From the NCBI GenBank assembly GCA_963769425.1, contig CAVYLP010000006.1:192001-256000 (forward strand): a DNA stretch of 64,000 nt, read 5' to 3'. The DNA comes from Candidatus Bathyarchaeota archaeon (lineage in GTDB: Archaea; Thermoproteota; Bathyarchaeia; TCS64). Below, piece after piece: positions 9,720-60,850 of the stretch. Below the pieces are notes generated by a model, which saw nothing but the letters and a program-made list of their open reading frames with translations, did not search any database and was not told the DNA's origin. The position numbers and the translations under genes are program-made. Each line of letters begins with the position of its first letter. Position 1 is the stretch's first letter.

Positions 9720-11564
9720 TTACTTGTTGTCGGTTGTTGCCTCGACACCTTTCTCTTCTTTGAATTGCATCTTGTAGAATGAGCTGTAAAGTCCATTAAG
9801 CTTCATCAGTTCGAAGTGTGATCCCTTCTCGACGATTCTCCCCTGATCTATGACCAGGATCTCGTCACAGAGCCTAATCGTTGAAAGTCTATGAGCTATT
9901 ATTATCGCCATTCTGTTTTCAAGGAGTTTCTTCAACGCGTTTTGTAGCACGAGTTCGGTGTAGGGGTCTATGCTTGAGGTGGCCTCGTCTAGGATCAGTA
10001 GCTTTGGGTTCAGCAGAAGTGTTCTTGCGAAGCTTATCAGTTGTCTCTGTCCTATCGAAATGTTTGATGAGCCTTCCTCTATGATGTAGTCGTATCCTCC
10101 GGGTAGTTTCATTATGAAATCATGTGCACCGACGGTTTTGGCTGCCTCGATAACTGCCTCGTCGGATGCGTCGGGTTTTCCGAATCTAATGTTATCTCTT
10201 ACGCTGATGGCAAATAGGAAGGAGTCCTGGAGAACAGTGCTCATGTTTCCTCGAAGAGATGCGATCGTAATATCCTTGATGTCGTGTCCGTTTACTAGTA
10301 TTCTCCCGCTTATGGGGTCGTAGAACCTCTCAAGGAGATTTATTATTGTGCTCTTACCAGCGCCTGTAGGCCCGACTATGGCGAGCTTCTTTGAACCTTC
10401 TAGATCCAGGTTTACGTCGTGTATGACTGGATTTTGTGGGTCGTAACCGAATGTGATGTCCTCAAATTTCACTTCATTTATTGTATCAATCTTTATGGCT
10501 TTGTCTGGCGAGGGATCATCTACATCAACTTTAGTGTCTACTAAGTCGAAGATTCTTTCTAATGCGGACATGCATGATTGGTATTGGTCATAAGCGGTTA
10601 GGAACGTGGTGAGTGGTCCAAAATAGTTGAACTGATACTCTAGGAACGCTGCGAGTATTCCTAGGTTGATCTGGCCGTTTATAACGAGAATTGTGCCATA
10701 CCATAGTATTAGTACTGTTCCAACAATCCTCATAGTCAGTATGAGTGGTGTGTATATTGTTGATAGGAGGATGGTGCGTTTGTATGATTGAACAGTTTTT
10801 TCATTAACAACATCAAATTCTTGTTCAGCCTTATCTTCTTTTACGAATGCTTTTACGATCTTCATTCCTGCGAAGTTCTCTTGCATCTTGGCTATCAGGC
10901 CTGCAAGATTTGTGAGAGTCTTTCTATACTGTTTTCTTGATAGTCCTCCCATGACCCATGTCATGATTACTGCTATTGGAAGGATCGAGACTGCTAGTAA
11001 TGCAAGTTGCCAGTTTAGGAAGAATATTATTACCAATGCGCCTGCAATTGAGGCCGCATCGAGAATCATCGCTGTTAATCCCATTCTTAAGAATATTCTG
11101 ACCTGGTTTGCGTCTGTTGTCGGCCTCGACATTATACGCCCTATCTCTCCTTCTGAGAAGTACTTGAGCGATATTTTCTGTAATTTAACGGTACACTGGT
11201 TTCTAAGATTCATTACGACGTGTTCGCCGACGATTCTCATCTGATATGTCTGAATGTACTGGAAGACGTAGGTGGCTATTGTTACCCCGATGAATAGGGG
11301 GACCCACCAGATGAACGCTGAGATATATGAGCTATCGCGATTCTGTATTGTTGGAGTTATTATATTGTTTATAGCGATTAGGTGGAGGTATGGTGTGACA
11401 AGCCCCGTAAATGCACCTCCGGCGATGGCGATTGTGCCGAGAATCAAGTTCTTCTTGTAAACTACTATGTAATCCCAGAGTCTACCGATTAGTACTCCGT
11501 CAGCGACTTTTCTCTTCCCTCTCTCCTCCACTTTTGTTGAGAAGGTATTATGTTCATCAGACAA
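9720..11564 (-). CDS. ABC exporter, fused permease/ATPase (heterodimer subunit B)
   Basis: TM domain plus GPTGAGKS, ISIGQRQ and LILDEATS. Confidence 0.92.
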   Translation of the reverse strand: MSDEHNTFSTKVEERGKRKVADGVLIGRLWDYIVVYKKNLILGTIAIAGGAFTGLVTPYLHLIAINNIITPTIQNRDSSYISAFIWWVPLFIGVTIATYVFQYIQTYQMRIVGEHVVMNLRNQCTVKLQKISLKYFSEGEIGRIMSRPTTDANQVRIFLRMGLTAMILDAASIAGALVIIFFLNWQLALLAVSILPIAVIMTWVMGGLSRKQYRKTLTNLAGLIAKMQENFAGMKIVKAFVKEDKAEQEFDVVNEKTVQSYKRTILLSTIYTPLILTMRIVGTVLILWYGTILVINGQINLGILAAFLEYQFNYFGPLTTFLTAYDQYQSCMSALERIFDLVDTKVDVDDPSPDKAIKIDTINEVKFEDITFGYDPQNPVIHDVNLDLEGSKKLAIVGPTGAGKSTIINLLERFYDPISGRILVNGHDIKDITIASLRGNMSTVLQDSFLFAISVRDNIRFGKPDASDEAVIEAAKTVGAHDFIMKLPGGYDYIIEEGSSNISIGQRQLISFARTLLLNPKLLILDEATSSIDPYTELVLQNALKKLLENRMAIIIAHRLSTIRLCDEILVIDQGRIVEKGSHFELMKLNGLYSSFYKMQFKEEKGVEATTDNK

Positions 11565-11565
11565 T

Positions 11566-13410
11566 TTATTGATCGACCTCCAGTATCTCTTCGGGGGTCT
11601 TCTCAAGGAACTGTGTCTCGTATATTTTCTTGTATACCCTTCCCTTAGCCATTAGTTCATTGTGTGTTCCGAACTCGATGATTTCGCCATCATCAAGAAC
11701 CATTATTCTATCGGCATTCTTTATTGTTGAGAGCCTCTGGGCGATTATGAAGCATGTTCTACCCTTCAAAGCTTCATCAATTGCATCTTGTATTGCCTGT
11801 TCAGTCTTTGCGTCCACGAATGAGAGAGAGTCGTCTAGGATCAGGATCTTGGGGTTCGTTAACAGAGCCCTTGCGATGGTAAGCCTTTGTTTCTGGCCTC
11901 CTGAAAGGGTGACACCTCTCTCACCAACAAGTGTATCGTATCCCTCTGGGAGTGTCTCAATGAAGTCATCTATCTTGGCCATTTTTGCAACGGCTTTGAT
12001 CTCATCAATAGATGCGTCGTCTCTTCCAAATGCGATATTACTTTTTATTGTGCCCGAGAACAGGAATACGTCTTGAAGGACTAGCCCTACCTGTTTTCTG
12101 AGGAATGAGACCTTAAAATCCCTGATGTCTGTTCCATCTATTGATATGTTCCCTGAGTTGATGTCATAGAATCGGGGGATTAGATATACCAGAGATGTTT
12201 TTCCTGTTCCAGTTGCTCCGAGAATGGCTATTTTTTCCCCAGGATTAGCTATGAAACTGATGTTTTTTAGTATAGGTCTGTCCTTGACATATCCAAAAGT
12301 CACATCTTTGAATTCAACTTCTCCCTTTTCTATTTTGACATCTCTTGCATCTGGTCTGTTTATTACATCTCCGGGCAGATCGATTATATCGAAGAGTCTT
12401 TCGGATGCAGCTGTTGCGTTACTGAGACCTCCTATGAAGAAATGACTAAAATCACGAATGGGCCCAGTCGATCTCAAGACATACCTCGCATAGATCAGTA
12501 TCAACCCAAGTGACAATCCTAATGATAATATCATGTCTGTCCCGTAGACGTAGACTAATGTGATGCTCAGCGTTAGTATGGCAGTTGCAGAAGGCATGTA
12601 TATTGCTTGGATCTTCCCTGCTCTGATTGCGATGTCAACGTATTTTTCGTTAATATCTCTATCACCCACCTGCATTTCGTCTTCTCGTTGAAATATTCGG
12701 ATATTTTTCATTCCCACGATGTTCTGTTGCACATAAGAGCCGATTCGTCCTAAGATTAGCTGCATCTTCCTGAAGAGTGGCATCGTCAGCATGAAGTTCT
12801 TGGACTGGAAATAGAAAATGAAGGGAAGGGGTAACATCGCTATTACCGCCATGACCGGGTTTAACGTATAACATACCCAAAATATGAAAATCAATGTGAA
12901 AACAAGATTAGTTAATGTGCTAACCCATATTCTGAGGAAGCCGTCTACAAACATCAGTTCCTGTGTTGGCCTTGAGGTAAGGTCTCCTACAGGATTTGTG
13001 TCAAAAAAAGTAAAGGATTTTTCTTGACATGATTTGTAGTATTCCTTTCTTATATTTCCCATAACCATCTGCGAGACTATACCATTTAGGTATATTATTA
13101 CCCAATTGACTACAGCGAAACCTACTACCGCCACAAATATGTAAAGGAGTAAAGTTGAAAGAAGAGCAATATTACTAGTTGTCGGAGGGTTGCTTCCAAT
13201 AACGTAATCTATGAGTTGAGAGGTATACAGAGGCTCAAGAAGAAATAAGAATGATCTTAAGATAGCTAGCGTAGAAATGAAGACAATAATTGGGGTATAG
13301 GGTTTATGATATACCATAAGTCTCCTAAAAGCCTTTATTTGAGTAGAGAGGGCTTTTCGATTCTCCTCAATGGAATCGATATATCCAAGAATTGGTTTGG
13401 CAACAGCCAT
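11566..13410 (-). CDS. ABC exporter, fused permease/ATPase (heterodimer subunit A, degenerate site)
   Basis: GATGTGKT, LSGGQKQ; non-canonical Walker B ILDDSLS and AQRL switch, typical of heterodimeric exporters. Confidence 0.92.
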   Translation of the reverse strand: MAVAKPILGYIDSIEENRKALSTQIKAFRRLMVYHKPYTPIIVFISTLAILRSFLFLLEPLYTSQLIDYVIGSNPPTTSNIALLSTLLLYIFVAVVGFAVVNWVIIYLNGIVSQMVMGNIRKEYYKSCQEKSFTFFDTNPVGDLTSRPTQELMFVDGFLRIWVSTLTNLVFTLIFIFWVCYTLNPVMAVIAMLPLPFIFYFQSKNFMLTMPLFRKMQLILGRIGSYVQQNIVGMKNIRIFQREDEMQVGDRDINEKYVDIAIRAGKIQAIYMPSATAILTLSITLVYVYGTDMILSLGLSLGLILIYARYVLRSTGPIRDFSHFFIGGLSNATAASERLFDIIDLPGDVINRPDARDVKIEKGEVEFKDVTFGYVKDRPILKNISFIANPGEKIAILGATGTGKTSLVYLIPRFYDINSGNISIDGTDIRDFKVSFLRKQVGLVLQDVFLFSGTIKSNIAFGRDDASIDEIKAVAKMAKIDDFIETLPEGYDTLVGERGVTLSGGQKQRLTIARALLTNPKILILDDSLSFVDAKTEQAIQDAIDEALKGRTCFIIAQRLSTIKNADRIMVLDDGEIIEFGTHNELMAKGRVYKKIYETQFLEKTPEEILEVDQ

Positions 13411-13767
13411 TTTCAGGACTTCGTTAAACAATAATCGATTAGTAAATACTTATACGCTTATCGCTGGGTTAAACTGTCTGGATAAAAATTGGACAAATGT
13501 TTGCCTGTATTTTTTAATTTGACAGGTAATACGCACGTAAACTTGAAATATGATGGGTTGAATAACAGGTTGAATCAACTGGTGGTTTACCTGTCAAAAA
13601 GAATTGAGGCCTTTCTATATTATGGTCTAAGCGCGGTTGTAGTGATCGTCATCGTTATCCTCATACGCTCCATCAATATTGCAGCATAAATACATTCAAC
13701 GATTGCAAGTTTTTTAACTCAAATTGTAAGCATAAGTTTATTAAAATTGAAAAATAATTAAAAAGTA

Positions 13768-14352
13768 ATGGAGTCTTCTTCTAGATTTTCGATTTTTGTC
13801 ATCATATTGTCCCTCAGCTCTATCTTAGGATTCGCTGAAGGTTTTTTTATATGTTACGTCTTCACATTAAATGCATATTATTTGTCGGCCACACTTGGAT
13901 TCAGCCTTCTATTAATTGGTAGCTTGTTTTGGTTTTACTTTTATTTCATGAAGGTCGAACCATATTCCTCGAATACTAGTGCACCCCTTACCCAGATGCC
14001 TGTTACACGAGACTTTGTTAATCCTACCTACCGTAGAGTTCCGATTGATATCCTGGAGGCTCAGGAGGGTAGAGAACACCTCGTAGACATCGTAGAAAAT
14101 AATAAAACTATTCATATTATCGCTGAGCTTCCAATCGTTGGCATGAGTTATGTTAACTTCAACTGTTTAGGTAGGATGCTCATCCTCTCTTTCGACGTTG
14201 GAAACAATAGGTACTATAAAGATATCGAACTTCCATCTATGGTCAATTCCAATAGTGGTAAAGTTAAATTAAATAACTGGATCGTTGAATTAGATTTAAC
14301 AAAGATTAAAATGGAGAATTTGGAAGAAGATCAGTTAAAGCAAGAGTTTTGA
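13768..14352 (+). CDS. Membrane protein with C-terminal Hsp20/alpha-crystallin-like domain
   Basis: Two N-terminal hydrophobic helices; LVDIVE..IHIIAELP...RYYKDIELP..V...NNWIVEL resembles archaeal Hsp20. Confidence 0.6.
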   Translation: MESSSRFSIFVIILSLSSILGFAEGFFICYVFTLNAYYLSATLGFSLLLIGSLFWFYFYFMKVEPYSSNTSAPLTQMPVTRDFVNPTYRRVPIDILEAQEGREHLVDIVENNKTIHIIAELPIVGMSYVNFNCLGRMLILSFDVGNNRYYKDIELPSMVNSNSGKVKLNNWIVELDLTKIKMENLEEDQLKQEF

Positions 14353-14931: not shown

Positions 14932-16227
14932 TTATTCCTCGACTTCGAGGACGATGCCCGCGCCGATGGTCGTGCCCATGTCTCGCAGGGCGAACCTGCC
15001 GAGCTGTGGGAAGTCCTTGAATGCCTCGATGGCGATGGGCTGGAGGGGTACGAACTTTACGATTGCGGCCTCTCCTGTCCTGAGGTATGTGGGGTTCTGC
15101 TCCACGACCTGTCCCGTCCTGGGGTCGAGCTTGGCCTCGATGGCCTCGAACTTGACCGCGATCTGGGCGGTGTGTATGTGCAGCACCGGGGTGTAGCCTG
15201 GGCCGACTGCTGTGGGGTGGTGGATTATGAAGATCCTGCCCTTGAAGGCCTTCGCGACCTTGCAGGGGGTGTTCAGGTGGCTGGCGACCTCGCCGCGTTT
15301 TATCTTTTCGCGGTCGACGCCTTTGACGTTGAAGCCGATGTTGTCACCGGGGACTGCCTGCTCTAGGCGTGTGTAGTGGGTCTCGATGCTGTTGACTTTG
15401 CCCTTCTCGCCGCTCGGCATGAAGACGATGTCGTCGTTCACCTTGAGTACGCCAGTCTCGACTTTGCCAACTGGGGTAGTGCCCACACCACGGATGGTGT
15501 AGATCTCCTGAACAGGGATCCTTAGGGGCTTGTCAGTAGGCTTGGGGGGCATCGTGAAGGTGTCGAGTGCCTCGAGGAGCGTTGGGCCCTTGTACCAGGG
15601 CATGTTCGCGCTCTTCTTGACGAGGTTGTCGCCTCCCCAGCCGCTTGTGGGGACGAAGTTGACCTTGCTCGTATCGTAGCCGACTAGTTTGAGGAGGGTT
15701 GTGATGCCATCCTTGACTTCCTGGTAGCGCTGCTCGCTCCAAGCGACGGTCGGGTCGTCCATCTTGTTTATTGCGACGACGATCTGCCTAACTCCTAGGG
15801 TATAGGCGAGGAAGGCGTGCTCACGAGTCTGGCCTCCGGGGTTTGTCCCTGACTCATACTCGCCTTTCTTGGCGGAGATGAGGAGGATCGCGCCGTCTGC
15901 CTGGCTTGCACCGGTGACCATGTTCTTGACGAAGTCGCGGTGGCCGGGGCTGTCGATGACGGTGAAGAAGTTCTTCGCCGTCTCTAGCTTGTAGAAGGCG
16001 AGGTCGATGGTGATACCACGTTCGCGCTCCTCCTTGAGCCTGTCGAGGAGCCATGCGTACTTGAAGGACTCCTTGCCCATGGCTTTGGACTCTGCTTCCA
16101 TATCCTTCGCATATTTTTCGTCAATGGCGCCGGCGTCATAGAATAGGTGGCCAATGCTCGTGCTCTTACCGTGATCAACGTGTCCGATGATGATCAGGTT
16201 AATGTGTGGCTTCTCTTTACCGCTCAT
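14932..16227 (-). CDS. tuf: Translation elongation factor EF-1alpha
   Basis: GHVDHGKS, ERERGITID, DSPGHRDF, NKMD, LGRFALRDMG. Confidence 0.99.
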   Translation of the reverse strand: MSGKEKPHINLIIIGHVDHGKSTSIGHLFYDAGAIDEKYAKDMEAESKAMGKESFKYAWLLDRLKEERERGITIDLAFYKLETAKNFFTVIDSPGHRDFVKNMVTGASQADGAILLISAKKGEYESGTNPGGQTREHAFLAYTLGVRQIVVAINKMDDPTVAWSEQRYQEVKDGITTLLKLVGYDTSKVNFVPTSGWGGDNLVKKSANMPWYKGPTLLEALDTFTMPPKPTDKPLRIPVQEIYTIRGVGTTPVGKVETGVLKVNDDIVFMPSGEKGKVNSIETHYTRLEQAVPGDNIGFNVKGVDREKIKRGEVASHLNTPCKVAKAFKGRIFIIHHPTAVGPGYTPVLHIHTAQIAVKFEAIEAKLDPRTGQVVEQNPTYLRTGEAAIVKFVPLQPIAIEAFKDFPQLGRFALRDMGTTIGAGIVLEVEE

Positions 16228-16686
16228 TTCTCTAATCTCCTACTCAATCCGAACTGGATGGTGGATAAAAAGGTTCGGTTCACATCTATAAACCATACTA
16301 ATTAGTCCTCGTGGCAACCTCTAATTCTGGGTAAACATCGGCAACAAGAAAATTACATAGATATAACCCTCGAAAAAAGAGCACCTTTCTTAGACGTCAT
16401 AAGAACATATCCAAAGTATCTGAGATCCCCAAAACTAGTTAATCTGCGAATTTTTTTTTCAAATATGACCTGCTACGGTCATAAGGGAGACTTGAAAACA
16501 GCTCCTTTTCACATGACTACTTTGACTAGCTAATTCATTTATCTTGGAATGTTTAATTTAGAATTATTTTAATCAGATTAATCATTGAACCAACTTCTTG
16601 CAACCTGTTTTACACCTAACCAATGAAAATTTCTAATATGCGTAAAGTTTAAACATGTCAGCCGACACCGGAAGGTGGAGAATCGC

Positions 16687-17115
16687 TTGACTAACGGTAT
16701 GTTCTCTGCCCGCAGGCTCAAAAATAACAGGAGGGCTATGCGGTACAAGAGCAAGGACTTCGTCCTCCGAATGAAGCGCCGAACTACGAAGAAGGATCTC
16801 CTCATGGGCGCTCCAATGGGCAGGGGCATCGTACTCCAGAAGGTGGGCGTCGAGTCCAAGCAGCCAAACTCCGCCATCCGCAAGTGCGTTCGCATCCAGA
16901 TCATCAAGAACGGCCGACTCGCCACGGCTTTCCTCCCCGGCGACGGCGCCCTCAACTTCGTCGACGAACACGACGAGGTCACCATCGAGGGCATCCACGG
17001 CCCCCGCAGCCGCAGCATGGGGGACATTCCCGGCGTCCGCTACAAGGTGAGCGCCGTGAACGGTGTCCCACTTAATCTCCTGGTCGTCGGAAAGATCCAG
17101 AAGCCCACCAGGTAA
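16687..17115 (+). CDS. rpsL: 30S ribosomal protein S12
   Basis: [24 protein letters not shown]. Confidence 0.98.
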
Positions 17116-17142: not shown

Positions 17143-18333
17143 TTAGACGAGCTTCTTGTTTATTGGCTTGGTTTCCTTCGCTATTAGGCTTGGTACGAAG
17201 GCTACCGCGAAGAGAATGGATGATAGGTAGAAGGTCCATGAGGCGCCCTGGGCGGCGAGCACCCAAGTCATTATAATCGGGCCGGTTATTGAGCCCAGGT
17301 CGAAGAAGGTGCGGTACGTCCCGACGGCGGCCCCCCGGCTCTCCGCCTCAACCGACTCCGCGGCGAAGACTGGGCCGATTATCCAAATCGCCCCCGTCGT
17401 AATCCCGAGTAGGAAGAAGATAGCCGATGTCATGACGAGCCCGGAGACCAAAGTCAACGGCAGGACCATTACGGCGGTCGCCGCGATCCCGAACATCAGG
17501 ACCGGTTTTCTGCCGATCCTATCGGATATCATCCCCATAGTGAATATGGCGAGGACGTAGCCGATGGACATGGCGCCCATTATGATGCCTATGTCAGTCA
17601 GGCTCATCTTCAGGGTCCCGTTGGCGTACAGCGGGTAGGTTGTGTAGAGTACACCCTGGCTCACCACGAAGGAGACGAATGTCGCTAAACATACGGTGAG
17701 GAGCGTCCTGTTGCGGAACATCTTCGGGATGTCGGAGAGGTTCATCGGCCGGGACTTCGGGATGGTTAAGGCTTCTTTCTTGATTCTCGGTATTAGTATG
17801 AGGGCTACGGCGATGACGCAGAGTATGGCGGCGAGTATGAAGCCGCCAAAGAAGCCGAGCTCGGTGATGAGAAACCCGCTGACGGTTGAGCCTAGGATGG
17901 TCCCGCTGAATTCGATCCCCTGGAATATCCCCATCGCGCTCCCTCGGGTCTCGATGGGAAACATGTTCAGGATGAGGGTCATCGAGACGGCGAAGAAGAG
18001 GGGCGCGCCGAATCCCTGCAGCCCCCTCGCTATGATCAGCTGAACGGGGTCCGTGACGAAGGCGTTATAGAATGTGCCTATCGTGGTGAGGATGAGGCCG
18101 AGGAACATGGGCCAGTAGTAGCCCCAGCGGGAGGAGATGAAGCCGCTCGGTATCTCGAGCAGCACCCTCGCCACCCAGTAGGCGGCGACGCTGAAGCCTA
18201 TCATCACACCCGTGGCGCCTAGCGACTTCGCGAATATCGAGAGGAGGGGGTTGATCAGACTCGTGGAGAACATTGCGAGGAGGGCGACGACGCATAGGAT
18301 TACGTAGGAAACGCTGTAGCCTTTTCGCGACAT
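17143..18333 (-). CDS. MFS transporter
   Basis: Many hydrophobic segments; motif-A-like SDRIGRKPV. Confidence 0.9.
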   Translation of the reverse strand: MSRKGYSVSYVILCVVALLAMFSTSLINPLLSIFAKSLGATGVMIGFSVAAYWVARVLLEIPSGFISSRWGYYWPMFLGLILTTIGTFYNAFVTDPVQLIIARGLQGFGAPLFFAVSMTLILNMFPIETRGSAMGIFQGIEFSGTILGSTVSGFLITELGFFGGFILAAILCVIAVALILIPRIKKEALTIPKSRPMNLSDIPKMFRNRTLLTVCLATFVSFVVSQGVLYTTYPLYANGTLKMSLTDIGIIMGAMSIGYVLAIFTMGMISDRIGRKPVLMFGIAATAVMVLPLTLVSGLVMTSAIFFLLGITTGAIWIIGPVFAAESVEAESRGAAVGTYRTFFDLGSITGPIIMTWVLAAQGASWTFYLSSILFAVAFVPSLIAKETKPINKKLV

Positions 18334-18374
18334 TGTACCCTTAGCGCTCTATATCTCGTTATTATAAGTCTGGT

Positions 18375-18383
18375 GATCTTCGG
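18375..18383 (+). repeat. Left target-site duplication GATCTTCGG
   Basis: Identical 9-mer at 24312-24320; both copies directly abut the TIRs. Confidence 0.92.
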
Positions 18384-18407
18384 GATACTGTTCAGTCTTT
18401 TGTCATA
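18384..18407 (+). repeat. Left terminal inverted repeat GATACTGTTCAGTCTTTTGTCATA
   Basis: Exact reverse complement of 24288-24311. Confidence 0.95.
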
Positions 18408-18422
18408 GTAGGATTTAACTGA

Positions 18423-19571
18423 CTATGTGATGGACGGGATTGGTTGAAGATCTCTCTCTAACTCAAGATTAGTTGTGTTGGATATTTTCTTTACCGGGTA
18501 AACGCTGAATGCCTCTTCAAAACTATCGGCTTTTCTAAACTTCTTGACTAATCCTTCGTAAGGAGGAAATGCCCCCCCATAACCAAGTATTCTCCTTGCG
18601 TTACCAACCATTTTTAATTGTTGATCCGTCCATAATGGTGATTTAAACTGGTTTTTTTCCAATGAGGTTAATGGTTCATATCTCATTGGATAAGATACAC
18701 ACCCTAGATCTGCAACTAATCGCGTTCGTTCAAAAAATGAATACGGATTATCACCACCGTAACTTTCATCGTAAAAATTGTAAATTGTGTAAAAGAAGAT
18801 CTTCCGTTTTCTTATACCACTTTGCGAAAGACGTTCTATGGCTTTTGTAACCTGTATTTTTTCATTATTATCATCAAACGCAGTCCTGATTATAGGAGTT
18901 GTTAGATCCGCTATCATACGGGCTTTCTCATCATCGATGAGACGACAATCAATTCCTTGGTTAAAATCAACAGGCAATCCTATGTCCCGTAGAGCAACAA
19001 GCATTTTTCTCCAATTTGGAGATGCAAGGATATTATTATCCCATAGAATAATTCTCTTATGACCCGGATAGACATAACGCTCTAACTCTTCTATTACAGA
19101 ATGAATCTTCCCTTCTAGTTTTGGAACAATGCAAAAAGGGCAGCTTCTGATACATCCTCTTGAAGTGAAAAGGATTGTACTATCCCATTTTTTCCATCGT
19201 TCGACATCATCTAAAATATCATATGCTGGAATGTAACTATCCGCTTTCTCAAAAAGTCCTGTGTGAACCTCTGTAAATGGAAAAAATGATTTAACTCTCT
19301 CAGACATTAATGATGCATAAATTCCTCCAACCCGTATCCTTGCATCAAGATATTTAGCATGGTAAAATTCGATTGCCTCATGCACCGGTTTCCATGCATA
19401 GGTGAATAAGGAGGTTATTTCTACAATATCAGGTTTAAAACTCCCATCCTCCTCCATACCATGGACGAGTTTAACTTGGTTACCTCTGGAACGATGGTAC
19501 GAAGCTAACTTGAGTAATCCGAGGGGAGGGAAACCGCTATAATATGCGGGCTCAACGAGCAGAACTTTCAT
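18423..19571 (-). CDS. Radical SAM protein with N-terminal B12-binding-like domain
   Basis: SRGCIRSCPFC (CxxxCxxC); N-terminal PPLGLLKLASYH and RVGGIYASL; WDNN and DFNQGID. Confidence 0.85.
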   Translation of the reverse strand: MKVLLVEPAYYSGFPPLGLLKLASYHRSRGNQVKLVHGMEEDGSFKPDIVEITSLFTYAWKPVHEAIEFYHAKYLDARIRVGGIYASLMSERVKSFFPFTEVHTGLFEKADSYIPAYDILDDVERWKKWDSTILFTSRGCIRSCPFCIVPKLEGKIHSVIEELERYVYPGHKRIILWDNNILASPNWRKMLVALRDIGLPVDFNQGIDCRLIDDEKARMIADLTTPIIRTAFDDNNEKIQVTKAIERLSQSGIRKRKIFFYTIYNFYDESYGGDNPYSFFERTRLVADLGCVSYPMRYEPLTSLEKNQFKSPLWTDQQLKMVGNARRILGYGGAFPPYEGLVKKFRKADSFEEAFSVYPVKKISNTTNLELERDLQPIPSIT

Positions 19572-19660
19572 AGGGAATGAAGCAATTTTAGGGGATAAAA
19601 ATGTTTCTGATAAAAATGGAAAAAAGGATCCAATAATGTATTTTATTATGGATTCCCTTT

Positions 19661-21376
19661 TTAAAGGTCTTTGACATTCTTGGATTTCTCTATCAATCGA
19701 AGTATGAGGTCTTGTGTCATGAGAAATTCTGTCATCGTATCAATTTTCTCTTCATCACTCATGGTTTCATAATATGAAAAAGAAATCTTCCCTCTTTCAT
19801 GCTTGTATGGATCAACGAATAAGTAATGGAGTGCAGAAATCATGGCTCCGAAGAGACGGTCACGGTATCTATCCTCGTTATTTGGTTTTTTATTAGCTAG
19901 AGTAAGAATAGGACCATTATCTCCTCTCTCAACGTTTTTCCAGTCAAAAGATCTTTGAGATAATTCCGCTATCTCACTGATTGTTAACCCTGTTTTTTGT
20001 CTTAGTAGATTTGCCACTGGGTCCATAGCATCAATGTTCAATTCCAATTTACCCCTCTTTGTTGTTAGTCTTAGATGTTCCTTAAGTTCAGGATGGCATG
20101 CTTTCGTCAATTCTGAAAGTCTCTCCATTTTTTCTTTGATGAGATCAGAAGGTTCTTCTTTTGTTTTTTCAAGGATTTCTTTTTCTAATTCTTCAATAGA
20201 TTTGGTTTCTTCCGCAGATTTCAAGTCAATTGCTTCTTTCATTTTCAATAAAGCAGGGTCTTTAGGAAAGCTTCGTTTTTGTTTTAACTTTTTCTTTAGT
20301 TTTACAATGGTGTTATTAGCATATTTTAGTTCACCAGAATTTACATCTTGTTTTATATGTTCTATGGTTTTTGTATTAATGTTATGTGATTGATAACGGT
20401 TCTGCTCTTGTACACTTCCTATAAAAACTCCTACTTGTTCATTTAATGGTTCGAGAATGTCATTATTTGCTTCAAAATTATTACGTGGAGCATTTTCCTT
20501 TAAATCATCAGTTATTATATGAATTTCTCCATATTGCCATTGATTAAACATACCATCGTGTTGTTTTATTACTAGATTTTCATCCCCGATTGTGATGCCT
20601 TTTTTCTTAAAATAAATGCCTCTGTTTGGAGGCTTTAATACACTATTGTTTTTGCCTGTAATGAGCCAACAATATGCTACTGGTTTTCCATTTATAACTA
20701 ACTTCTTATCGATGATAGTCTCAAAGAAAAGGTCATTGTTGTATGGAGGACGGAATATTTTTTGGTTTTCAAAGAAAATCTCTGCCATTTCGGTCTTGAT
20801 GCCATTTTCTGAAAGCCTCTTGTTAATCTCCTTTCCTAATGTAAATTTATCGGTATCGAATGGTGCAGGAAGATTCTGTGATAGATAATCCGTAATAAGA
20901 TTATCAGTGAATATCGTGTGTTGATTCGGTAGCATTTCCTCAAGTCTAACGGTCGTAAAATGCGATTCTTCAAGTGTTTCATCTTTTCCTAATTCAATAT
21001 TTTCAATGTTTCCCGTGATGTTATTTAATACTTCAATGGCTGGTTTGTTTAAGGTATATTGATCTCTTAACATATCTGCGTTTATTTCTACTCTGAACTT
21101 TGGATGACCCTGTTTTTTAGTTATTATAACAATTCTTCGACAAACAGGAATACCACTCCATATTCCAATTCCTCTCCAACCAATTAGTTCCCCAGATTTT
21201 TCGCTTACACCAAGATATAATGATTTTTCTAATTCTTTCTCATCCATACCACACCCATCATCTTTTATTATTAGATCAATATGTTTATTCTCAAAATACA
21301 CATCGACACGTTTTGCTCCTGCATCAAAGCTATTTTGGATGTATTCACGAAGGCTGTTTCTATTTCCATCATACAA
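19661..21376 (-). CDS. GHKL (Hsp90/MORC-like) ATPase with putative C-terminal Ymh-type HEPN domain
   Basis: LREYIQNSFDA, KDDGCGM and GWRGIG GHKL boxes; C-terminal ~120 aa resembles TIGR02391/Ymh; true start may lie upstream. Confidence 0.8.
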   Translation of the reverse strand: MYDGNRNSLREYIQNSFDAGAKRVDVYFENKHIDLIIKDDGCGMDEKELEKSLYLGVSEKSGELIGWRGIGIWSGIPVCRRIVIITKKQGHPKFRVEINADMLRDQYTLNKPAIEVLNNITGNIENIELGKDETLEESHFTTVRLEEMLPNQHTIFTDNLITDYLSQNLPAPFDTDKFTLGKEINKRLSENGIKTEMAEIFFENQKIFRPPYNNDLFFETIIDKKLVINGKPVAYCWLITGKNNSVLKPPNRGIYFKKKGITIGDENLVIKQHDGMFNQWQYGEIHIITDDLKENAPRNNFEANNDILEPLNEQVGVFIGSVQEQNRYQSHNINTKTIEHIKQDVNSGELKYANNTIVKLKKKLKQKRSFPKDPALLKMKEAIDLKSAEETKSIEELEKEILEKTKEEPSDLIKEKMERLSELTKACHPELKEHLRLTTKRGKLELNIDAMDPVANLLRQKTGLTISEIAELSQRSFDWKNVERGDNGPILTLANKKPNNEDRYRDRLFGAMISALHYLFVDPYKHERGKISFSYYETMSDEEKIDTMTEFLMTQDLILRLIEKSKNVKDL

Positions 21377-21601
21377 TCCTGCCGTAACTGCCTCAAGAAG
21401 TCTGGCACCAAAAGCTTCATTGGTAAATAATACTAAGGTAGATCCCTCTGTGTTTCATCATAGTATCAACCGCTTATATCTTATATGTCTCTATAACTCT
21501 TAAGGTTCTTTCCATTCTCGATTTTAATTTTAATCTTATTCATTGCTTTCTGAATCAATACTATTTTCTCTAACCCCCGTCAAAGAGGTGTCAGTGATTT
21601 A

Positions 21602-21664
21602 GGTATCCTAGGGGTATACCACAAGAGATATATAATTAGGGTATCCTGTAGGATATCTGTAGGA
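21602..21664 (+). promoter_or_regulatory. Transposase promoter: TATA box flanked by GGTATCC-like repeats
   Basis: ATATATAA at 21628-21635; GGTATCC 21602, GGTATACC 21613, GGTATCC 21640, GGATATC 21651. Confidence 0.5.
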
Positions 21665-21675
21665 GTTTGGGAAAG

Positions 21676-22590
21676 ATGAGTTGCAAGTACTGTGGGTCCG
21701 AAAAAATCGTCAAGAACGGAAAAGTCAAGGGAACACAGGTTTACAAGTGCAAGGAATGTGGACACAGGTTCTTCCAGAACGGCAACTTCTCAAAGATGCA
21801 GAGCGAGAAGCGGATCATAGCCGCAGCCTTAAACTTCTACTATGATGGACTATCGCTGAGAAAGGAGCAGCGCAACCTAGAGCAGATCTTCGGGGAACAC
21901 ATCAGCCAAGTTACAATCCTCAATTGGATTAAGAAGTACTCTAAGCTAGTCAAGGAGTATGTCGAGAAGCAGGCACCCCAGCTTTCAGGTCTCTGGCATG
22001 AGGATGAGACGATGCTAGGCTGTGAGGGGCGGAACATCTGGTTCTGGGAGATGATCGATGAGGACACCAAGTTCATGGTTGCAAGTCATATCTCAAACAC
22101 ACGAACATTTGAGGACACGATAGCCATATTTGATAAAGGGTTACAACAGAGCAAGGAGCGGCCTAAAGCCGTGTTCGTTGACGGGTGCAACGCATACAAA
22201 TCAGCGTTCAACAAGGTCTTCTATAGCAGGTACAAGACAGAGAAGGTAGAACTAGTACAACGAGTAGGGATAAGGGCTAGAGAGACAAACAACTCAATCG
22301 AGCGTCTACATGGAACCCTTAAGGACAGAACGAGGTGCATGAAAGGGCTACACAGCTACGAATCAACGAAACTGCTACTTGAGGGCTGGTCGGTTTACTA
22401 TAACTGCGTTAGGCCACATCAGAGCCTAGGCAACAGGACGCCGGCACAAGCAGCAGGGATGAATGTTCCAAACATTTGGCTGGGGCTCATAGAAGCGGCA
22501 ACCAAAGAAGAGGCGGTTGAATCAGTAGAAAAAATAAAGGGAGTAGAACCATTTTTGGATATGATGCAACTTGAGGTGAAAACGCGATGA
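21676..22590 (+). CDS. DDE transposase (IS1-like Zn ribbon + HTH + IS6/rve-like core)
   Basis: CKYCGS..KNG..QVYKCKECG; GLSLR..ISQVTILNWIKKY; WHEDET, VDG, NNSIERLHGTLK, YYNCVRPHQSL. Confidence 0.93.
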   Translation: MSCKYCGSEKIVKNGKVKGTQVYKCKECGHRFFQNGNFSKMQSEKRIIAAALNFYYDGLSLRKEQRNLEQIFGEHISQVTILNWIKKYSKLVKEYVEKQAPQLSGLWHEDETMLGCEGRNIWFWEMIDEDTKFMVASHISNTRTFEDTIAIFDKGLQQSKERPKAVFVDGCNAYKSAFNKVFYSRYKTEKVELVQRVGIRARETNNSIERLHGTLKDRTRCMKGLHSYESTKLLLEGWSVYYNCVRPHQSLGNRTPAQAAGMNVPNIWLGLIEAATKEEAVESVEKIKGVEPFLDMMQLEVKTR

Positions 22591-22751
22591 AGAAGGTGCT
22601 AGTGGCTTTACCGGATGAAGTAGTTAACATGGTAGACACCGAACTGAGTGGAAAACTTGGCGATGGTAGGAGTGACACGCTGAGAACCATAATCATGAAT
22701 TGGCTAGGTGAAAAGGGATATCTGACAAAGGAGGGCAAGTCAAGTGAATAA
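22587..22751 (+). CDS. CopG/ribbon-helix-helix regulator (54 aa)
   Basis: Manual translation MKKVLVALPDEVVNMVDTELSGKLGDGRSDTLRTIIMNWLGEKGYL; ATGA overlap with the transposase stop. Confidence 0.75.
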   Translation: MKKVLVALPDEVVNMVDTELSGKLGDGRSDTLRTIIMNWLGEKGYLTKEGKSSE

Positions 22752-22887
22752 AACCAAAAAAGAACTCGAAGAAGAGGTTGAACTACTGAGCACAATGCTT
22801 GAGAGTTTAGTACAACTACTTGAGGAAAAAGGGGTACTAACGCAAGTCGAGTGGGAAAGAACAATTAAAAATAACATAGTCTTATAG
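22744..22887 (+). CDS. Small helical protein (47 aa)
   Basis: Manual translation MNKTKKELEEEVELLSTMLESLVQLLEEKGVLTQVEWERTIKNNIVL; GGAGG SD; overlaps the RHH stop. Confidence 0.6.
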   Translation: MNKTKKELEEEVELLSTMLESLVQLLEEKGVLTQVEWERTIKNNIVL

Positions 22888-22990
22888 GGTTCTGGTAACT
22901 TAACGGACCTAAGCAATTTGAAAAACGAGTGATAACTAGCGGAACATATTCTAAAAAACGAACTCATGGAATTTGGGAATGCAAATAAAG

Positions 22991-23452
22991 TTAAATTAAG
23001 TCATCTGTCTTCCACTGTGGAAGTCGCTCAGCTTCAGCAAATGCATTCCGATAACGAAGACCTCGTTCAATGGCTTCTCTAGTGTGATATGCCGATACAT
23101 GCAACTCGCCTCCCATGTGAGGAACCTGACTGATTATACCCTCAGAAACTAGTTGTTTTAAAGCCCTACTCCAATGCTTCAATTTGCCTTTTTCGTATCC
23201 ACTTTTCAGATTTGTTTCAGTGTGATGTTTTATTTGATTTCCATCACGGCCTACCCAACAACCATGGTAATACAACTTATTGACTATAAACCCCTTGATA
23301 TGGGCGAGATCACCTTTGTTTAACCCCGTATTGATTCCCCATGGGTAATAATAGGATCTACCTATGACATACATATAAACTCTTGGTAAAATAAAACAAT
23401 CTCTTAAGACAATCTTAATATGTCCGTATATTGTTATACAATAACAATACAC
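22991..23452 (-). CDS. Hypothetical protein, probable winged-helix fold (true start likely downstream of 23452)
   Basis: NKLYYHGCW...HHTETNLKSG...ALKQLVSEGII...HVS resembles small archaeal wHTH-like proteins. Confidence 0.5.
   Translation of the reverse strand: MYCYCITIYGHIKIVLRDCFILPRVYMYVIGRSYYYPWGINTGLNKGDLAHIKGFIVNKLYYHGCWVGRDGNQIKHHTETNLKSGYEKGKLKHWSRALKQLVSEGIISQVPHMGGELHVSAYHTREAIERGLRYRNAFAEAERLPQWKTDDLI
23429..23449. promoter_or_regulatory. Palindromic putative operator TATTGTTAT-N3-ATAACAATA
   Basis: Perfect 9-bp inverted repeat between the two divergent small genes. Confidence 0.5.
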
Positions 23453-23485
23453 ACAAGTATAAATAAATGAGACAAAACAGATAGA

Positions 23486-23872
23486 ATGAGACAGAAAGAA
23501 AAGGAAGATGCTAGTATGGCCCCAGCAGGTAGCCGGAGATGGGGCGAAGACGCTTCAGATACGGAGGAGTATGCAGTTAGCGGCCCGTTGACGAGGCTCT
23601 TTGATTGCCCCACAGCCAGAGTGCTCGATCAGGCTTCATTAGTAGGTAAGATGGAACAAACGATCTCGATGCTAAAAGAGAGCACCAACCTAAGTTACAA
23701 GACTGTGGAAAAAGCTGTGAAGAAGTTGTTAGATCAGAAATTGATGGAGAAAGGCCGACGGATTGGGAATGCAAATACATACATCTTTCTCACAGAAAAT
23801 CACCTAAGTCAATTGATTGCTTGTGCCAACAAAATACAATTGGAGCATGTGAAAGAGCAATCTGAAAAATGA
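23486..23872 (+). CDS. Winged-helix DNA-binding protein
   Basis: PLTRLFDCPTARVLD...LSYKTVEKAVKKL...RRIGNANTY. Confidence 0.7.
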   Translation: MRQKEKEDASMAPAGSRRWGEDASDTEEYAVSGPLTRLFDCPTARVLDQASLVGKMEQTISMLKESTNLSYKTVEKAVKKLLDQKLMEKGRRIGNANTYIFLTENHLSQLIACANKIQLEHVKEQSEK

Positions 23873-23901
23873 TTTTTGATTCTTTTTAAAAAATAGATTT
23901 G

Positions 23902-24201
23902 TTAAAGTTTCTTTTGAACCATCTCTTTTTCATGTTTTATTTCTGGGGCCTCCTTAAACATACTTGAAGTCGGAGGTCTACTTTGCTTCACTCCCTTTAG
24001 AAGCTGTTCGATTGTTAGAATCTGAATCTGGGCTGTAGATCCCTCTCCTGAAGTCTCTTTGAATAGAACGTTATAATCGGCTTTGCTGTTGAATGCGGGA
24101 TCTAAGTAAATCAGGTCAACGGATTCGTCTTTGATGAATTTCCTCATGACCGTTAGATTATCGCCGTAATAGAGGGTATTCACGAAATCCGGATTAGACA
24201 T
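23902..24201 (-). pseudogene. Internally deleted DNA adenine/N4C methyltransferase remnant
   Basis: NTLYYGDNL..DESVDLIYLDPAFNS (DPPF-like) joined directly to a C-terminal IQILTIEQLL..FKEAP tail; SAM-binding region absent. Confidence 0.8.
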
Positions 24202-24287
24202 CAAGGATACACTGTCTTTGAACATTTAAAAGAAATTGGATTAAGCGGTTATCGGTTTCTAATAGGTATCCACGCTTTACAGTACCA

Positions 24288-24311
24288 TATGACAAAAGAC
24301 TGAACAGTATC
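24288..24311 (-). repeat. Right terminal inverted repeat
   Basis: TATGACAAAAGACTGAACAGTATC on the + strand. Confidence 0.95.
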
Positions 24312-24320
24312 GATCTTCGG
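24312..24320 (+). repeat. Right target-site duplication GATCTTCGG
   Basis: Identical to 18375-18383. Confidence 0.92.
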
Positions 24321-24377: not shown

Positions 24378-24989
24378 GTGAGCGAAGAACCAGAAGTTAC
24401 AATCGAGGCCACTACAGCGGGAACCGGCGGCATAAAGCTATTCGGCGAGTGGAGCTTCGAGAACATAGAGGTCCGGGACCCCGGCCTCAAGAGGTACCTA
24501 AAGATCTCTCCCGTCTTCATGCCCCACTCCGGTGGTCGCCACGAGGCCAGGAAGTTCCAGAAGAGCGAGATGAGCATCGTTGAGCGCTTCACCAACGACC
24601 TCCTGAAGCCAGGAAGCAGCGGCGGCGACAAGCCACGCGTCATGAACGCGGTTAGGACGGCCTTCAAGATCGTCTACGTAAAGACGGGTAGGAACCCCAT
24701 AGAGGTGCTCGTCCGCGCGGTCGAGAACTGCTCGCCCAACGAGGACACGACTCGCATCGGCTACGGTGGTGTCGTCTACAGACTCGCAGTCGACATCTCA
24801 CCCCAGCGCAGGATCGACCTCGCCCTGAGATTCATCGCGAAGGGAATCAAGGAGCAGACCTTCGGCAACAGGAAGACCTTCGAGGAGATCATCGCGGACC
24901 AGCTCGTCGGCGCCGCCCAGAACGACGGCAACAGCTTCGGCGTCCGAAGGAAGCGCGAGATGGAGCGCGTAGCGCAAGCCTCTAGGTAA
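24378..24989 (+). CDS. rpsG: 30S ribosomal protein S7
   Basis: KLFGEW..DPGLKRY, NPIEVLVRAVEN, VDISPQRRIDLALR, ERVAQASR. Confidence 0.97.
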   Translation: MSEEPEVTIEATTAGTGGIKLFGEWSFENIEVRDPGLKRYLKISPVFMPHSGGRHEARKFQKSEMSIVERFTNDLLKPGSSGGDKPRVMNAVRTAFKIVYVKTGRNPIEVLVRAVENCSPNEDTTRIGYGGVVYRLAVDISPQRRIDLALRFIAKGIKEQTFGNRKTFEEIIADQLVGAAQNDGNSFGVRRKREMERVAQASR

Positions 24990-59787: not shown

Positions 59788-60312
59788 ATGCCATTAATTG
59801 ATAAAGTCACGCGTAAGCAAATATCAAGAAGAGATTTTAGTTTTCTATTTGGGCTGCTAATAATAATTTTAACCATATTTTTATCAGCAGGAGTCTATTT
59901 TCATTTATTTCAATTTCGATTCCTAGTAGGTCCACTCTTCCTCTCTCACTGGCTTAGCTGGATAGGAACCGCGTTTATCGCATTTTTTACTCCAACCTAT
60001 TATCTTCTGAAGTTACGCTACCCAAAAAATATACGAAGGCTACTCAGGTTCCACTGCCTAGGTTACTTGCTCGCATTCATGTTTATATCGATTCATTTCT
60101 TCAGTGAAATTCCACGTGGAACCGGCGAGGCATTGTACTTAACGACTTTAATCTTGGTGGTGTCCGGCTTCATTTTCAGATTTCGATTATTGCGCATGAG
60201 CATCGGAAGTTATAACATATCTCATATCATAAGATATATACATCTAAGTGTAGTTATGACATTCTATATTGTCATAGTTATACACGTAATCCAACACATA
60301 GGTGCACCATAA
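59788..60312 (+). CDS. Membrane protein with His-bearing TM helices
   Basis: About 5 TM segments with SHW, FHC, SIH, YIH and VIH histidines. Confidence 0.6.
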   Translation: MPLIDKVTRKQISRRDFSFLFGLLIIILTIFLSAGVYFHLFQFRFLVGPLFLSHWLSWIGTAFIAFFTPTYYLLKLRYPKNIRRLLRFHCLGYLLAFMFISIHFFSEIPRGTGEALYLTTLILVVSGFIFRFRLLRMSIGSYNISHIIRYIHLSVVMTFYIVIVIHVIQHIGAP

Positions 60313-60581
60313 GCAATTTAATGAGTTATTATCTGCGTGATGCATTTTATTTGTTTGGGTTTGAGGGATAAAATTCTATCACCTCGGATCAGGGACCCAC
60401 TTGTAACCACATTCTTCGTGAGAACATTTAACGGACAATCTGGGGGTCTTTGTTTTAATCATAACTAAATACTCTAAAATTGACTTAATCCTAACCTTTT
60501 TAACACTTCCGACAGGCGATTTTAGCTCATTTTAGGCTACAATTCCTAATCCTAGACCCCCAAGTTATATACTGCTAGTAA

Positions 60582-60770
60582 ATGTATGACACACCTCATC
60601 GAGGTGTTATCGGCATGTCCACTCCTCATAGTGATAAGAAAGTTAACTGGGGCGATGATTGTCCGGTGTGTGGAACCGAGAAATCGATTATTGCAGGAGT
60701 CGATATGGCTGACCATAGGAGACTAATCTTCAGATGTCTTAAATGCCATACGATTTTTCCTCATATTTAA
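60582..60770 (+). CDS. Small zinc-ribbon protein
   Basis: CPVCG...FRCLKCH. Confidence 0.5.
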   Translation: MYDTPHRGVIGMSTPHSDKKVNWGDDCPVCGTEKSIIAGVDMADHRRLIFRCLKCHTIFPHI

Positions 60771-60850
60771 CCCGACGACACTCATATGACTATGTTCAAC
60801 CTATTTGAAATTACTTCAGGTTTATAAAAAAAGCTTATTAATTATATTTC

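Follow-up and report, generated by a model that had tools for sequence, protein, structure and literature searches.

The described systems closest to the archaeal element reported here are the insertion sequences (ISs) of the IS6 family (IS26, IS257, ISS1 and the archaeal ISH and ISC elements). According to a 2021 review, these are units of 0.7-0.9 kb (up to 1.7 kb) with 8-bp repeats and 15-20-bp ends with GG tips (PMC7986276), and a CTGTT core and a G at position 7 have been described for their ends (PMC7986276, PMC6807381). They move by copy-in through cointegrates, which recombination then resolves (PMC7986276). Harmer and Hall (2019, PMC6807381) have argued that the archaeal elements and the clostridial elements with a zinc-finger transposase lie outside IS6/IS26 proper, which in the strict sense comprises a short transposase close to Tnp26, 14-bp conserved ends starting from GG and the signature E-DH---K; for the archaeal 'IS6' transposases, the signature is quoted as E--F---K-R (PMC6807381). 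The only passenger-carrying IS6 member named in the 2021 review is ISDsp3 of Dehalococcoides (PMC7986276). Here we describe a transposon of 5928 bp, located at 18384-24311 of a 64,000-nucleotide stretch of DNA (the window; positions 192,001 to 256,000 of the forward strand of contig CAVYLP010000006.1, assembly GCA_963769425.1) from a Candidatus Bathyarchaeota archaeon. In all likelihood it is an autonomous DDE transposon, belonging to an IS6-like archaeal family with a zinc-finger transposase.

How does this element compare with the described systems? With the IS6 family it shares a lysine seven residues after the catalytic glutamate, a putative helix-turn-helix ahead of the catalytic core, a single transposase gene and CTGTT/G7 ends. 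It departs from that family in its 9-bp instead of 8-bp duplication and in its 24-bp, mostly GA-tipped ends, which in IS6 are 14-20 bp long and GG-tipped; and whereas IS6 elements measure 0.7-0.9 kb, the members of the present family span 1.9-6.5 kb, with two conserved accessory genes and cargo on both sides. The clostridial zinc-finger IS6 elements (clade h / VII, e.g. ISCpe7) likewise combine an N-terminal CxxC zinc finger with an IS6-type core, but they are bacterial, simple ISs of 1.2-1.3 kb without passenger or accessory genes. ISDsp3 is alike as an IS6-type element with a passenger gene; it is, however, a single-copy element of 1456 bp with one hypothetical passenger and no intact zinc finger, in contrast to a family with one to five passengers. 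Tn7-like transposons are similar in their variable, defence-rich cargo (Benler et al. 2021, PMC8649781) but are far larger, insert at specific sites and rely on several proteins (TnsABC and others), where the present element has a single DDE transposase and its family no obvious 9-mer consensus. Finally, the transporter ISs (IS1595, IS66 and others) also hold passenger genes inside IS-type ends, although their transposases belong to other families. We know of no transporter IS, in IS1595, IS66 or elsewhere, with a central core and a conserved pair of a CopG-like gene and C2 (introduced below).

Boundaries, insertion site and mobility

The element is delimited by the following features:

18375-18383, no strand: left copy of the target-site duplication, 9-bp GATCTTCGG
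18384-18407, plus strand: left terminal inverted repeat of 24 bp, GATACTGTTCAGTCTTTTGTCATA, with CTGTT at positions 5-9 and G at position 7
24288-24311, minus strand: right terminal inverted repeat of 24 bp, reading TATGACAAAAGACTGAACAGTATC on the forward strand
24312-24320, no strand: right copy of the target-site duplication, 9-bp GATCTTCGG

A sequence-only reading of this stretch had proposed perfect 24-bp inverted repeats with a 9-bp duplication, an AT-rich interior between GC-rich flanks and an architecture that is neither that of a simple IS nor that of a composite transposon; it had also predicted an empty site with a single 9-mer in relatives, and a recent insertion. All of these points hold. 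A repeat search returned the two arms (24 nt each, 100% complementary, separated by 5880 nt), and because the bases just outside them do not pair, the length is 24 bp for the ends and 9 bp for the duplication. The left junction (18375-18407) reads ...ctggtGATCTTCGG and then GATACTGTTCAGTCTTTTGTCATA, with ctggt preceding GATCTTCGG, and the right junction (24288-24320) reads ...TATGACAAAAGACTGAACAGTATC and then GATCTTCGGtaagcc, with taagcc following GATCTTCGG. At up to three mismatches the 24-mer end occurs in two places in the window, both of them the arms; the expected number from 100 shuffles of the window is 0.00, which rules out a chance inverted repeat. A check against the rest of the genome, as that reading had suggested, located the 24-mer at the two arms only in the whole assembly (2.55 Mb, 6 contigs), and the element is single-copy in its genome. 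The G+C content is 0.38 in the element versus 0.55 in 3 kb of flanks and, within the element, 0.46-0.49 in the core and 0.31-0.40 in the cargo. One DDE transposase gene lies mid-element, 3.3 kb and 1.7 kb from the ends. No inner end-like sequence was detected inside the element with the tip at up to 2 of 12 mismatches, and a scan with the 24-mer at up to 8 of 24 mismatches gave one weak match, at 22917.

The insertion target is a 107-bp spacer between divergent genes for a major facilitator superfamily (MFS) transporter and rpsG. The insertion point is 41 bp away from the start codon of the MFS gene and 57 bp from that of rpsG, and the flanking TATA-like boxes suggest that both promoters were spared. 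The MFS gene (17143-18333, minus strand) itself sits between rpsL (16675-17115) and rpsG (24378-24989). Since the congeners examined have the same MFS-containing order, the adjacency of rpsL and rpsG was broken before the transposon arrived.

For the empty site, the left flank was searched against 40 related genomes, and both flanks were then compared with the loci returned. Two genomes of the same genus carry the predicted site with a single GATCTTCGG: G008 reads ...aagtctggtGATCTTCGGtaagcc..., with flanks 82-87% identical, and G012 reads ...aagtctggtGATCTTCGGtagcc..., with flanks 74-82% identical. In each of these genomes, the BLAST alignments of the two flanks have exactly 9 bp in common. 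MFS and rpsG are neighbours without the element in seven of the eight congener loci examined, the eighth of which stops at a contig end. The transposase (E <= 1e-40) is found in none of the 17 other genomes of the genus, and pieces of the element occur at 98-99% identity beside other flanks elsewhere; the insertion is recent on the scale of the genus. In a sample of the class, 66 of 401 genomes have a transposase match, with a place of at least 47% identity in only 13. Most of the 66 matches belong to a second family of zinc-finger IS6-like transposases, 30-40% identical and encoded by frames of 370-490 amino acids (aa), which is often multi-copy, with three copies within 7 kb in one genome (G677, C4:835335-842558).

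Public sequencing data place the element beside other flanks. No run contained more than 21% of the sampled words, none of the runs listed was of RNA, and four runs were compared, at the level of contigs only. A 4765-nt contig in X1 matches 18383-22942 at ~93%, and its first 161 nt are unrelated to the left flank of the window; contigs in X2 are 98-99% identical to parts of the element and have unrelated sequence before 18383. The flanks are also seen free of the element, in contigs of relatives: one in X1 passes from 18309 to 24316 across 67 letters of other sequence, and X2 has a loose end ahead of 24312 that finishes in ...TTATAATAAGGCTGGT. A further joint in X1 (22942 to 23904), with 25 nt on one side only, was not relied on. 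The same ends with the same cargo therefore occur in other genomic contexts. The two 24-bp ends delimit what moves as a unit.

Transposase, conserved core and sibling elements

At the DNA level, the element is conserved with its siblings at 21598-22870 and at the ends only. This core of 1.27 kb is composed of a promoter region, tnpA, C1 and C2:

21598-21675, plus strand: core promoter region, with GGTATC...ATACC-type inverted repeats on either side of a TATA-like box
21667-22590, plus strand: tnpA, transposase with zinc finger, putative helix-turn-helix and DDE core; longest open reading frame (ORF) 307 aa, start TTG at 21667
22587-22751, plus strand: C1, 54 aa, CopG/Arc/MetJ (ribbon-helix-helix)-like, with a start codon that overlaps the stop of tnpA (ATGA)
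22744-22887, plus strand: C2, helical orphan protein of 47 aa; its GTG start overlaps the end of C1

The conserved start of tnpA is more likely the ATG at 21676, giving a protein of 304 aa. Profile matches agree with the make-up proposed from the letters alone, namely an IS1-like zinc ribbon joined to an IS6-like catalytic core. The first 35 residues match the IS1/IS1595 zinc-binding domain with 42.1 bits (cut-off 28). The protein scores above the cut-off of the NCBIfam model NF033587 transpos_IS6 (129.7 bits, cut-off 125) and matches Pfam DDE_Tnp_IS240 (E 1e-19, 71.5 bits, cut-off 27), and it stays below the cut-off of the IS1 model NF033558 (71 bits, cut-off 100). D113, D172, E212 and K219 are invariant in an alignment with a clostridial zinc-finger IS6, ISS1N and four archaeal relatives; the catalytic residues are thus present. 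The signature reads E-RLH-GTL-K-D-R, i.e. E--H---K-R, and the median ratio of non-synonymous to synonymous substitution rates (dN/dS) is 0.10, with dS near saturation. All plasmid matches to the catalytic part are annotated as IS6 and all are below 30% identity, the best being a clostridial zinc-finger IS6 (27.9% over 86% of the protein), whereas the only plasmid match to residues 4-98 is annotated as an IS1 transposase (H25). Among 1435 candidates scored, 714 are clusters of tnpA homologues; the best 120 listed are 69-88% identical, and those of them that are named come from Bathyarchaeia or Crenarchaeota. A scan of viral contigs by exact peptide words, which is no evidence of absence from viruses, found a relative neither of the transposase nor of the radical-SAM protein of the cargo (see below).

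Where, then, does the element belong? The transposase passes the IS6 profile and has the DDE-K residues, whereas the element as a whole has neither the duplication length nor the small single-gene size of IS6. Its ends have CTGTT at positions 5-9 and G7, at a length of 24 bp and, across the family, with mostly GA tips. It falls outside IS6/IS26 in the strict sense of Harmer and Hall, with less than 30% identity to ISS1N-type transposases, ends that start with GA and the E--H---K-R signature. Measured against the IS1 profile (71 versus 100 bits), only the N-terminal zinc domain passes. IS1 makes target duplications of 9 bp, the length found here, and ISfinder has ISMhu11, a subgroup of archaeal IS1 elements that can reach several kilobases. 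The literature searched contained no mention of ISMhu11. In the manner of a transporter IS, finally, the element has an outer duplication, empty sites in relatives, the same cargo beside other flanks (X1, X2) and passenger genes.

The sequence-only reading had anticipated siblings with the same type of ends and different cargo, and 30 such elements were found. They derive in the main from 48 loci of species-representative genomes, which were scanned for end-like 24-mers around the transposase. In 21 of these loci a pair of ends brackets the transposase, at spans of 833-5979 bp; 17 have perfect 9-bp duplications, two have a duplication with one mismatch, one has a duplication of 8 bp and one has none. 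A de novo search for inverted repeats with a duplication yielded eight more siblings (1912-6522 bp), which are left out of this statistic because that search required a duplication. The 30 siblings, all in archaeal genomes, measure 0.8-6.5 kb, and full-length members (1912-6522 bp) contain C1, C2 and cargo. A cultured archaeon, Methanolobus vulcani B1d, harbours a 3208-bp sibling (L039:8951-12158) that is flanked by the 9-bp duplication CCTTATGGG and keeps tnpA and C2. When empty sites are rebuilt, 22 of 29 evaluable ones have no ORF of at least 80 aa across them, and inspection of the listed 9-mers reveals no obvious target-site consensus.

The same kind of ends thus brackets the same kind of transposase in 30 further elements, at varying distances. 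The ends vary in step with the transposase tree: GATACTGTTCAGTCTTTTGTCAT is common to the window element and L004, the closest to it, and variants of their own mark other clades. It follows that the ends are cognate to this transposase. Every end has G at position 1, CTG at 5-7 and T at 9, and most keep CTGTT at 5-9; most members have GA tips, and in L007, L019 and L033 the tips are GG. In full-length elements the core is central with cargo on both sides. Nothing outside the core is common to all elements, and a recurring module can stand to its left or right and point in one direction or the other. Mobility of the family extends over many archaeal genomes, and the sequence to both sides of the core is exchangeable. 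Tandem right ends, 2 bp apart, occur in two siblings, L028 (13649-13698) and L006 (~13376-13425); in L028 the inner right end reads ..GTGATG and the outer ..GACCCA, and the 9-bp duplication belongs to the outer one. These tandem ends may be the scar of an end-targeted insertion or of cargo capture. Another sibling (L046:9839-10671) is an internally deleted derivative of 833 bp with part of the transposase only, and has the look of a miniature inverted-repeat transposable element; it has terminal repeats that match without fault for 40 bp or more, and one mismatch in its 9-mer duplication. No description of the family was found in the literature, although ISfinder/TnCentral and the supplements of IS6 papers, which lay outside the search, may list similar archaeal members; the chance that the family is undescribed is about even.

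The two small genes downstream of tnpA appear in nearly all siblings, C1 in 28 of 30 (dN/dS 0.16) and C2, at a size of ~50 aa, in 27 of 30 (dN/dS 0.20), both ratios again being medians with dS near saturation. As variation sits mostly at third codon positions and dN/dS is low, both are real genes. A longer antisense ORF at 22487-22864 was rejected, since third-codon variation favours the C1 and C2 frames. C1 has 1364 homologue clusters, several named by the Joint Genome Institute (JGI) as 'metal-responsive CopG/Arc/MetJ family transcriptional regulator', and its AlphaFold2 (AF2) model has an extended N-terminus and two helices (predicted local distance difference test, pLDDT, 62.9). It has no Pfam match, and a PDB profile search gave only spurious leucine-rich-repeat matches ('LxSLPxGVF'). 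For C2 there are 445 clusters at 50% identity, almost all of 44-100 aa and nearly all without annotation, no Pfam match and nothing below E 0.03 in the PDB profile search. A predicted complex of two copies of C1 with two of C2 scored 0.11, compared with a mark of 0.32, which counts neither for nor against an interaction.

In 26 aligned elements, two inverted repeats stand upstream of tnpA, one before and one after the TATA-like box, with the consensus gGtaTC..(N)..aTACCAcAAg.tATAtATa...aggTaTctTATAGtATAcCtGTgaGA..ATG. Presumably C1, possibly together with the transposase, auto-regulates tnpA through these promoter palindromes. GATAC, contained in the promoter half-site (GGTATC; reverse complement GATACC), is also the tip of the terminal repeats (18384-18388). 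One DNA-binding protein could see both ends and promoter, or the overlap of 5 bp could be due to chance.

Cargo of this copy and of its siblings

The DNA outside the core holds five reading frames:

18423-19571, minus strand: radical S-adenosylmethionine (radical-SAM) protein, 382 aa, of an uncharacterised family, with a B12-binding-like N-terminus and CxxxCxxC
19661-21376, minus strand: GHKL (MORC/Hsp90-like) ATPase, 571 aa, upstream of the radical-SAM gene and co-oriented with it, with a 90-bp gap
22991-23452, minus strand: ORF of 153 aa, function not assigned, with a sub-threshold Linker_histone (winged-helix) match (E 6.7e-4)
23486-23872, plus strand: ORF of 128 aa, weakly winged-helix-turn-helix-like, with weak PADLOC matches and no Pfam match
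23902-24225, minus strand: methylase remnant, 107 aa, in which the N-terminal ~64 residues of an N6/N4 DNA methylase of 545-590 aa are joined to its C-terminal ~42

The earlier reading had called the element intact and its cargo defence-like, and both descriptions are correct in part. Ends and core are intact, with the DDE-K residues kept; the cargo is not, as the methylase at 23902-24225 is the remnant of an internal deletion. In tblastn, residues 1-64 of the methylase of sibling L016 map to 24201-24013 and residues 546-577 to 24027-23935, and residues 9-65 and 504-545 of the L007 methylase map likewise. Because both methylase ends map in one frame, the 107-aa ORF is internally deleted and not truncated. 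As to defence, the description fits sibling cargo generally (restriction-modification and type IV restriction), while for the radical-SAM/MORC-like pair of this copy it is a matter of conjecture. Sibling cargo was scanned with Pfam only, and 10 of 20 representatives had no Pfam match. The matches comprise N6_N4_Mtase proteins, one of them fused to an Mrr-type nuclease (Mrr_cat), a 901-aa N6_Mtase/Eco57I-type protein, GmrSD_N+C type IV restriction enzymes, a Methylase_S type I specificity subunit, ParB_N, an SDH-type protease and UPF0175. By these assignments, the cargo of the family therefore consists largely of restriction and modification genes.

The pair carried by this copy is less easily placed. 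The radical-SAM protein matches Pfam Radical_SAM with E 5.5e-4, below the cut-off, and has 2706 homologue clusters, mostly unnamed; its Atlas clusters are named 'B12-binding domain-containing radical SAM' with a score of 0.99. The family is found in 2 of 401 genomes of a phylum sample. The GHKL ATPase matches Pfam HATPase_c_3 (E 2.7e-15). With its AF2 model (pLDDT 77.7), the best Foldseek match is MORC3 (5ix2_B, E 9.3e-13), and Hsp90 chaperones match as strongly as MORC. Atlas clusters of both proteins include viral members. Searched against PADLOC-DB 2.0, this copy yields no known anti-phage system: the GHKL protein has an N-terminal MzaB-like ATPase match only (E 1.8e-9, residues 8-91), and the methylase remnant has MTase_II matches on its N-terminus only. 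Of the two remaining frames, the 128-aa ORF gave weak matches (PDC-M05A, E 2.4e-4; Csa3, E 2.9e-3; MarR family, E 6.5e-3), and the 153-aa ORF has no homologue in sibling elements.

A GHKL homologue occurs in 16 of 80 metagenome loci (L064-L143) with a radical-SAM gene, in 13 of the 16 directly upstream on the same strand, and it lies directly upstream in all five loci whose radical-SAM protein is at least 57% identical. More distant radical-SAM genes have other upstream partners, including DUF3800 and DUF5131. One partner is an Eco57I-type methylase of 1080 aa whose stop overlaps the radical-SAM start; another is DndB-like, below the Pfam cut-off (26.4 versus 29.1 bits). With its changing upstream partners, the radical-SAM family looks like a DNA-modification or defence module with swappable partners. 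The partner genes fit such a role without proving it, and the radical-SAM/MORC-like pair is a candidate module of this kind. A narrow look at the restriction-modification literature found nothing on such a pair.

Elsewhere in the window there are two further stretches of low G+C content. One (9720-14352; 0.35-0.47 versus ~0.6) lies beside the EF-1-alpha gene (14932-16227), encodes two ABC exporters, of 628 and 621 aa, together with an ORF of 194 aa that has no Pfam match, and may be another acquired island; a smaller one lies at ~60000-61000.

Alternatives, mechanism and implications

In principle, a small IS might sit by chance in an AT-rich island that moved otherwise, with 24-bp ends that are not those of this transposase. 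In favour of this, the core has a higher G+C content (0.46-0.49) than the cargo (0.31-0.40), and an IS does not usually have its transposase as far as 3.3 kb and 1.7 kb from the ends. Such a scenario is nonetheless extremely improbable, because the window contains no end-like repeats around the core, the same ends bracket the same transposase in 30 further elements and co-vary with its tree, these ends carry the IS6-type CTGTT motif, and the element encodes no integrase or other recombinase. An integrase-mediated island was rejected likewise, no recombinase being among the proteins of the element. Alternatively, the element might be a compound or pseudo-compound transposon, or its decayed product after loss of one of two flanking IS copies. 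IS6 elements classically form pseudo-compound transposons (PMC7986276), and in L006 and L028 an additional right end lies 2 bp inward of the outer one. Against this very improbable origin stand the single transposase gene and single pair of ends in element and genome, the central core with cargo on both sides in full-length elements, the direct, not inverted, orientation of the IS copies in IS6 compound structures (PMC7986276), and a 9-bp duplication that flanks the whole unit.

A different question is whether the family belongs in IS1, as an archaeal single-ORF branch that would transpose like IS1, and not in IS6. The zinc domain (42.1 bits against a cut-off of 28), the 71 bits scored with the IS1 model, the IS1 annotation of the only plasmid match to residues 4-98 and the 9-bp duplication, a length that IS1 also makes, speak for this placement. 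We nevertheless think it unlikely, since the IS1 score is below its cut-off (71 versus 100) and the IS6 score above (129.7 versus 125), all plasmid matches to the catalytic core are annotated as IS6, the ends have CTGTT and G7 like IS6 ends (PMC7986276, PMC6807381), and E--H---K-R resembles the E--F---K-R of archaeal 'IS6' (PMC6807381). Considerably more room remains for the view that the radical-SAM protein and the chaperone-like ATPase of this copy are a metabolic or housekeeping pair caught by chance, which the want of a PADLOC system match, Foldseek matches to Hsp90 chaperones as strong as those to MORC and a GHKL partner in only 16 of 80 radical-SAM loci would all accommodate. On balance it appears doubtful: the radical-SAM family has a scattered distribution, with 2 of 401 genomes in the phylum sample, its other partners include the Eco57I-type methylase and, as weaker leads, the sub-cut-off DndB-like protein, DUF3800 and DUF5131, Atlas clusters of both proteins have viral members, and siblings have restriction or modification genes at the same positions.

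How might the transposon move? We envision that the IS6-like transposase, recognising the ends by its zinc finger and helix-turn-helix and catalysing with D113, D172, E212 and K219, would pair the distant ends and cut the target with a stagger of 9 bp. On the model of IS6/IS26, it would proceed by copy-in, whereby a cointegrate with the incoming replicon would be resolved by host recombination to leave one copy with its duplication; we lean slightly towards this route over cut-and-paste. The one sibling without a duplication and the two with tandem right ends might, at a stretch, be scars of the IS26-like kind. C1, perhaps with C2, would bind the GGTATC/GATACC palindromes that bracket the TATA box of tnpA and keep transposition low. 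The cargo would pay for the keep of the element, in siblings mostly with restriction-modification and type IV restriction genes, and here with a MORC-like GHKL ATPase and a B12-type radical-SAM enzyme, the original methylase having decayed.

Several observations weigh against parts of this picture. The 17 of 21 simple insertions with duplications fit copy-in and cut-and-paste alike, as does a single chromosomal copy with its duplication. The analogy with IS26 is weak for an element that has a 9-bp duplication, 24-bp ends and a transposase less than 30% identical to those named as IS6. The ribbon-helix-helix fold of C1 is derived from JGI naming and a low-confidence model, and in the Methanolobus element a 52-aa ORF (10866-11024), AbrB-like by eye, takes the place of C1. 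The radical-SAM/GHKL pair, lastly, corresponds to no PADLOC system beyond the MzaB-like match, and the partnership is seen in only 16 of 80 radical-SAM loci.

What would such elements mean for archaea? It is an evenly balanced proposition that they constitute an undescribed archaeal 'defence shuttle' family, present in Bathyarchaeia, Nitrososphaeria, Methanomethylicia and Methanolobus, in which a central transposase is combined with a two-gene control module (a CopG-like binder and an orphan helical protein), a palindromic promoter for self-regulation with a half-site at the tips of the ends, and free swapping between elements of what lies left and right of the core. If so, they would form a new IS group between IS1 and IS6, with a 9-bp duplication and 24-bp ends, and a simple one-protein vehicle for kilobase cargo in archaea. 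A whole family with routinely one to five passengers on both sides, set against the one hypothetical passenger named in the 2021 review (PMC7986276), makes the boundary of IS and transposon less sharp in a family known above all for the pseudo-compound movement of antibiotic-resistance genes. With a copy present in Methanolobus vulcani, which is in culture, the mechanism of transposition and the part played by the two accessory proteins can be put to the test. Compact, with one transposase and a tolerance for 4-5 kb of cargo, such an element could also be developed into a genetic tool for archaea. The cargo list is at the same time a catalogue of candidate archaeal defence genes, including the radical-SAM/MORC-like pair. 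In a recent census, no CRISPR-cas loci are recorded in 23 complete Bathyarchaeia genomes (PMC12669027). Our findings suggest a route by which restriction-modification, type IV restriction and uncharacterised modules spread among Bathyarchaeia; if the family is what we propose, single restriction, modification and novel modules would hop between the genomes of lineages that are largely without CRISPR.

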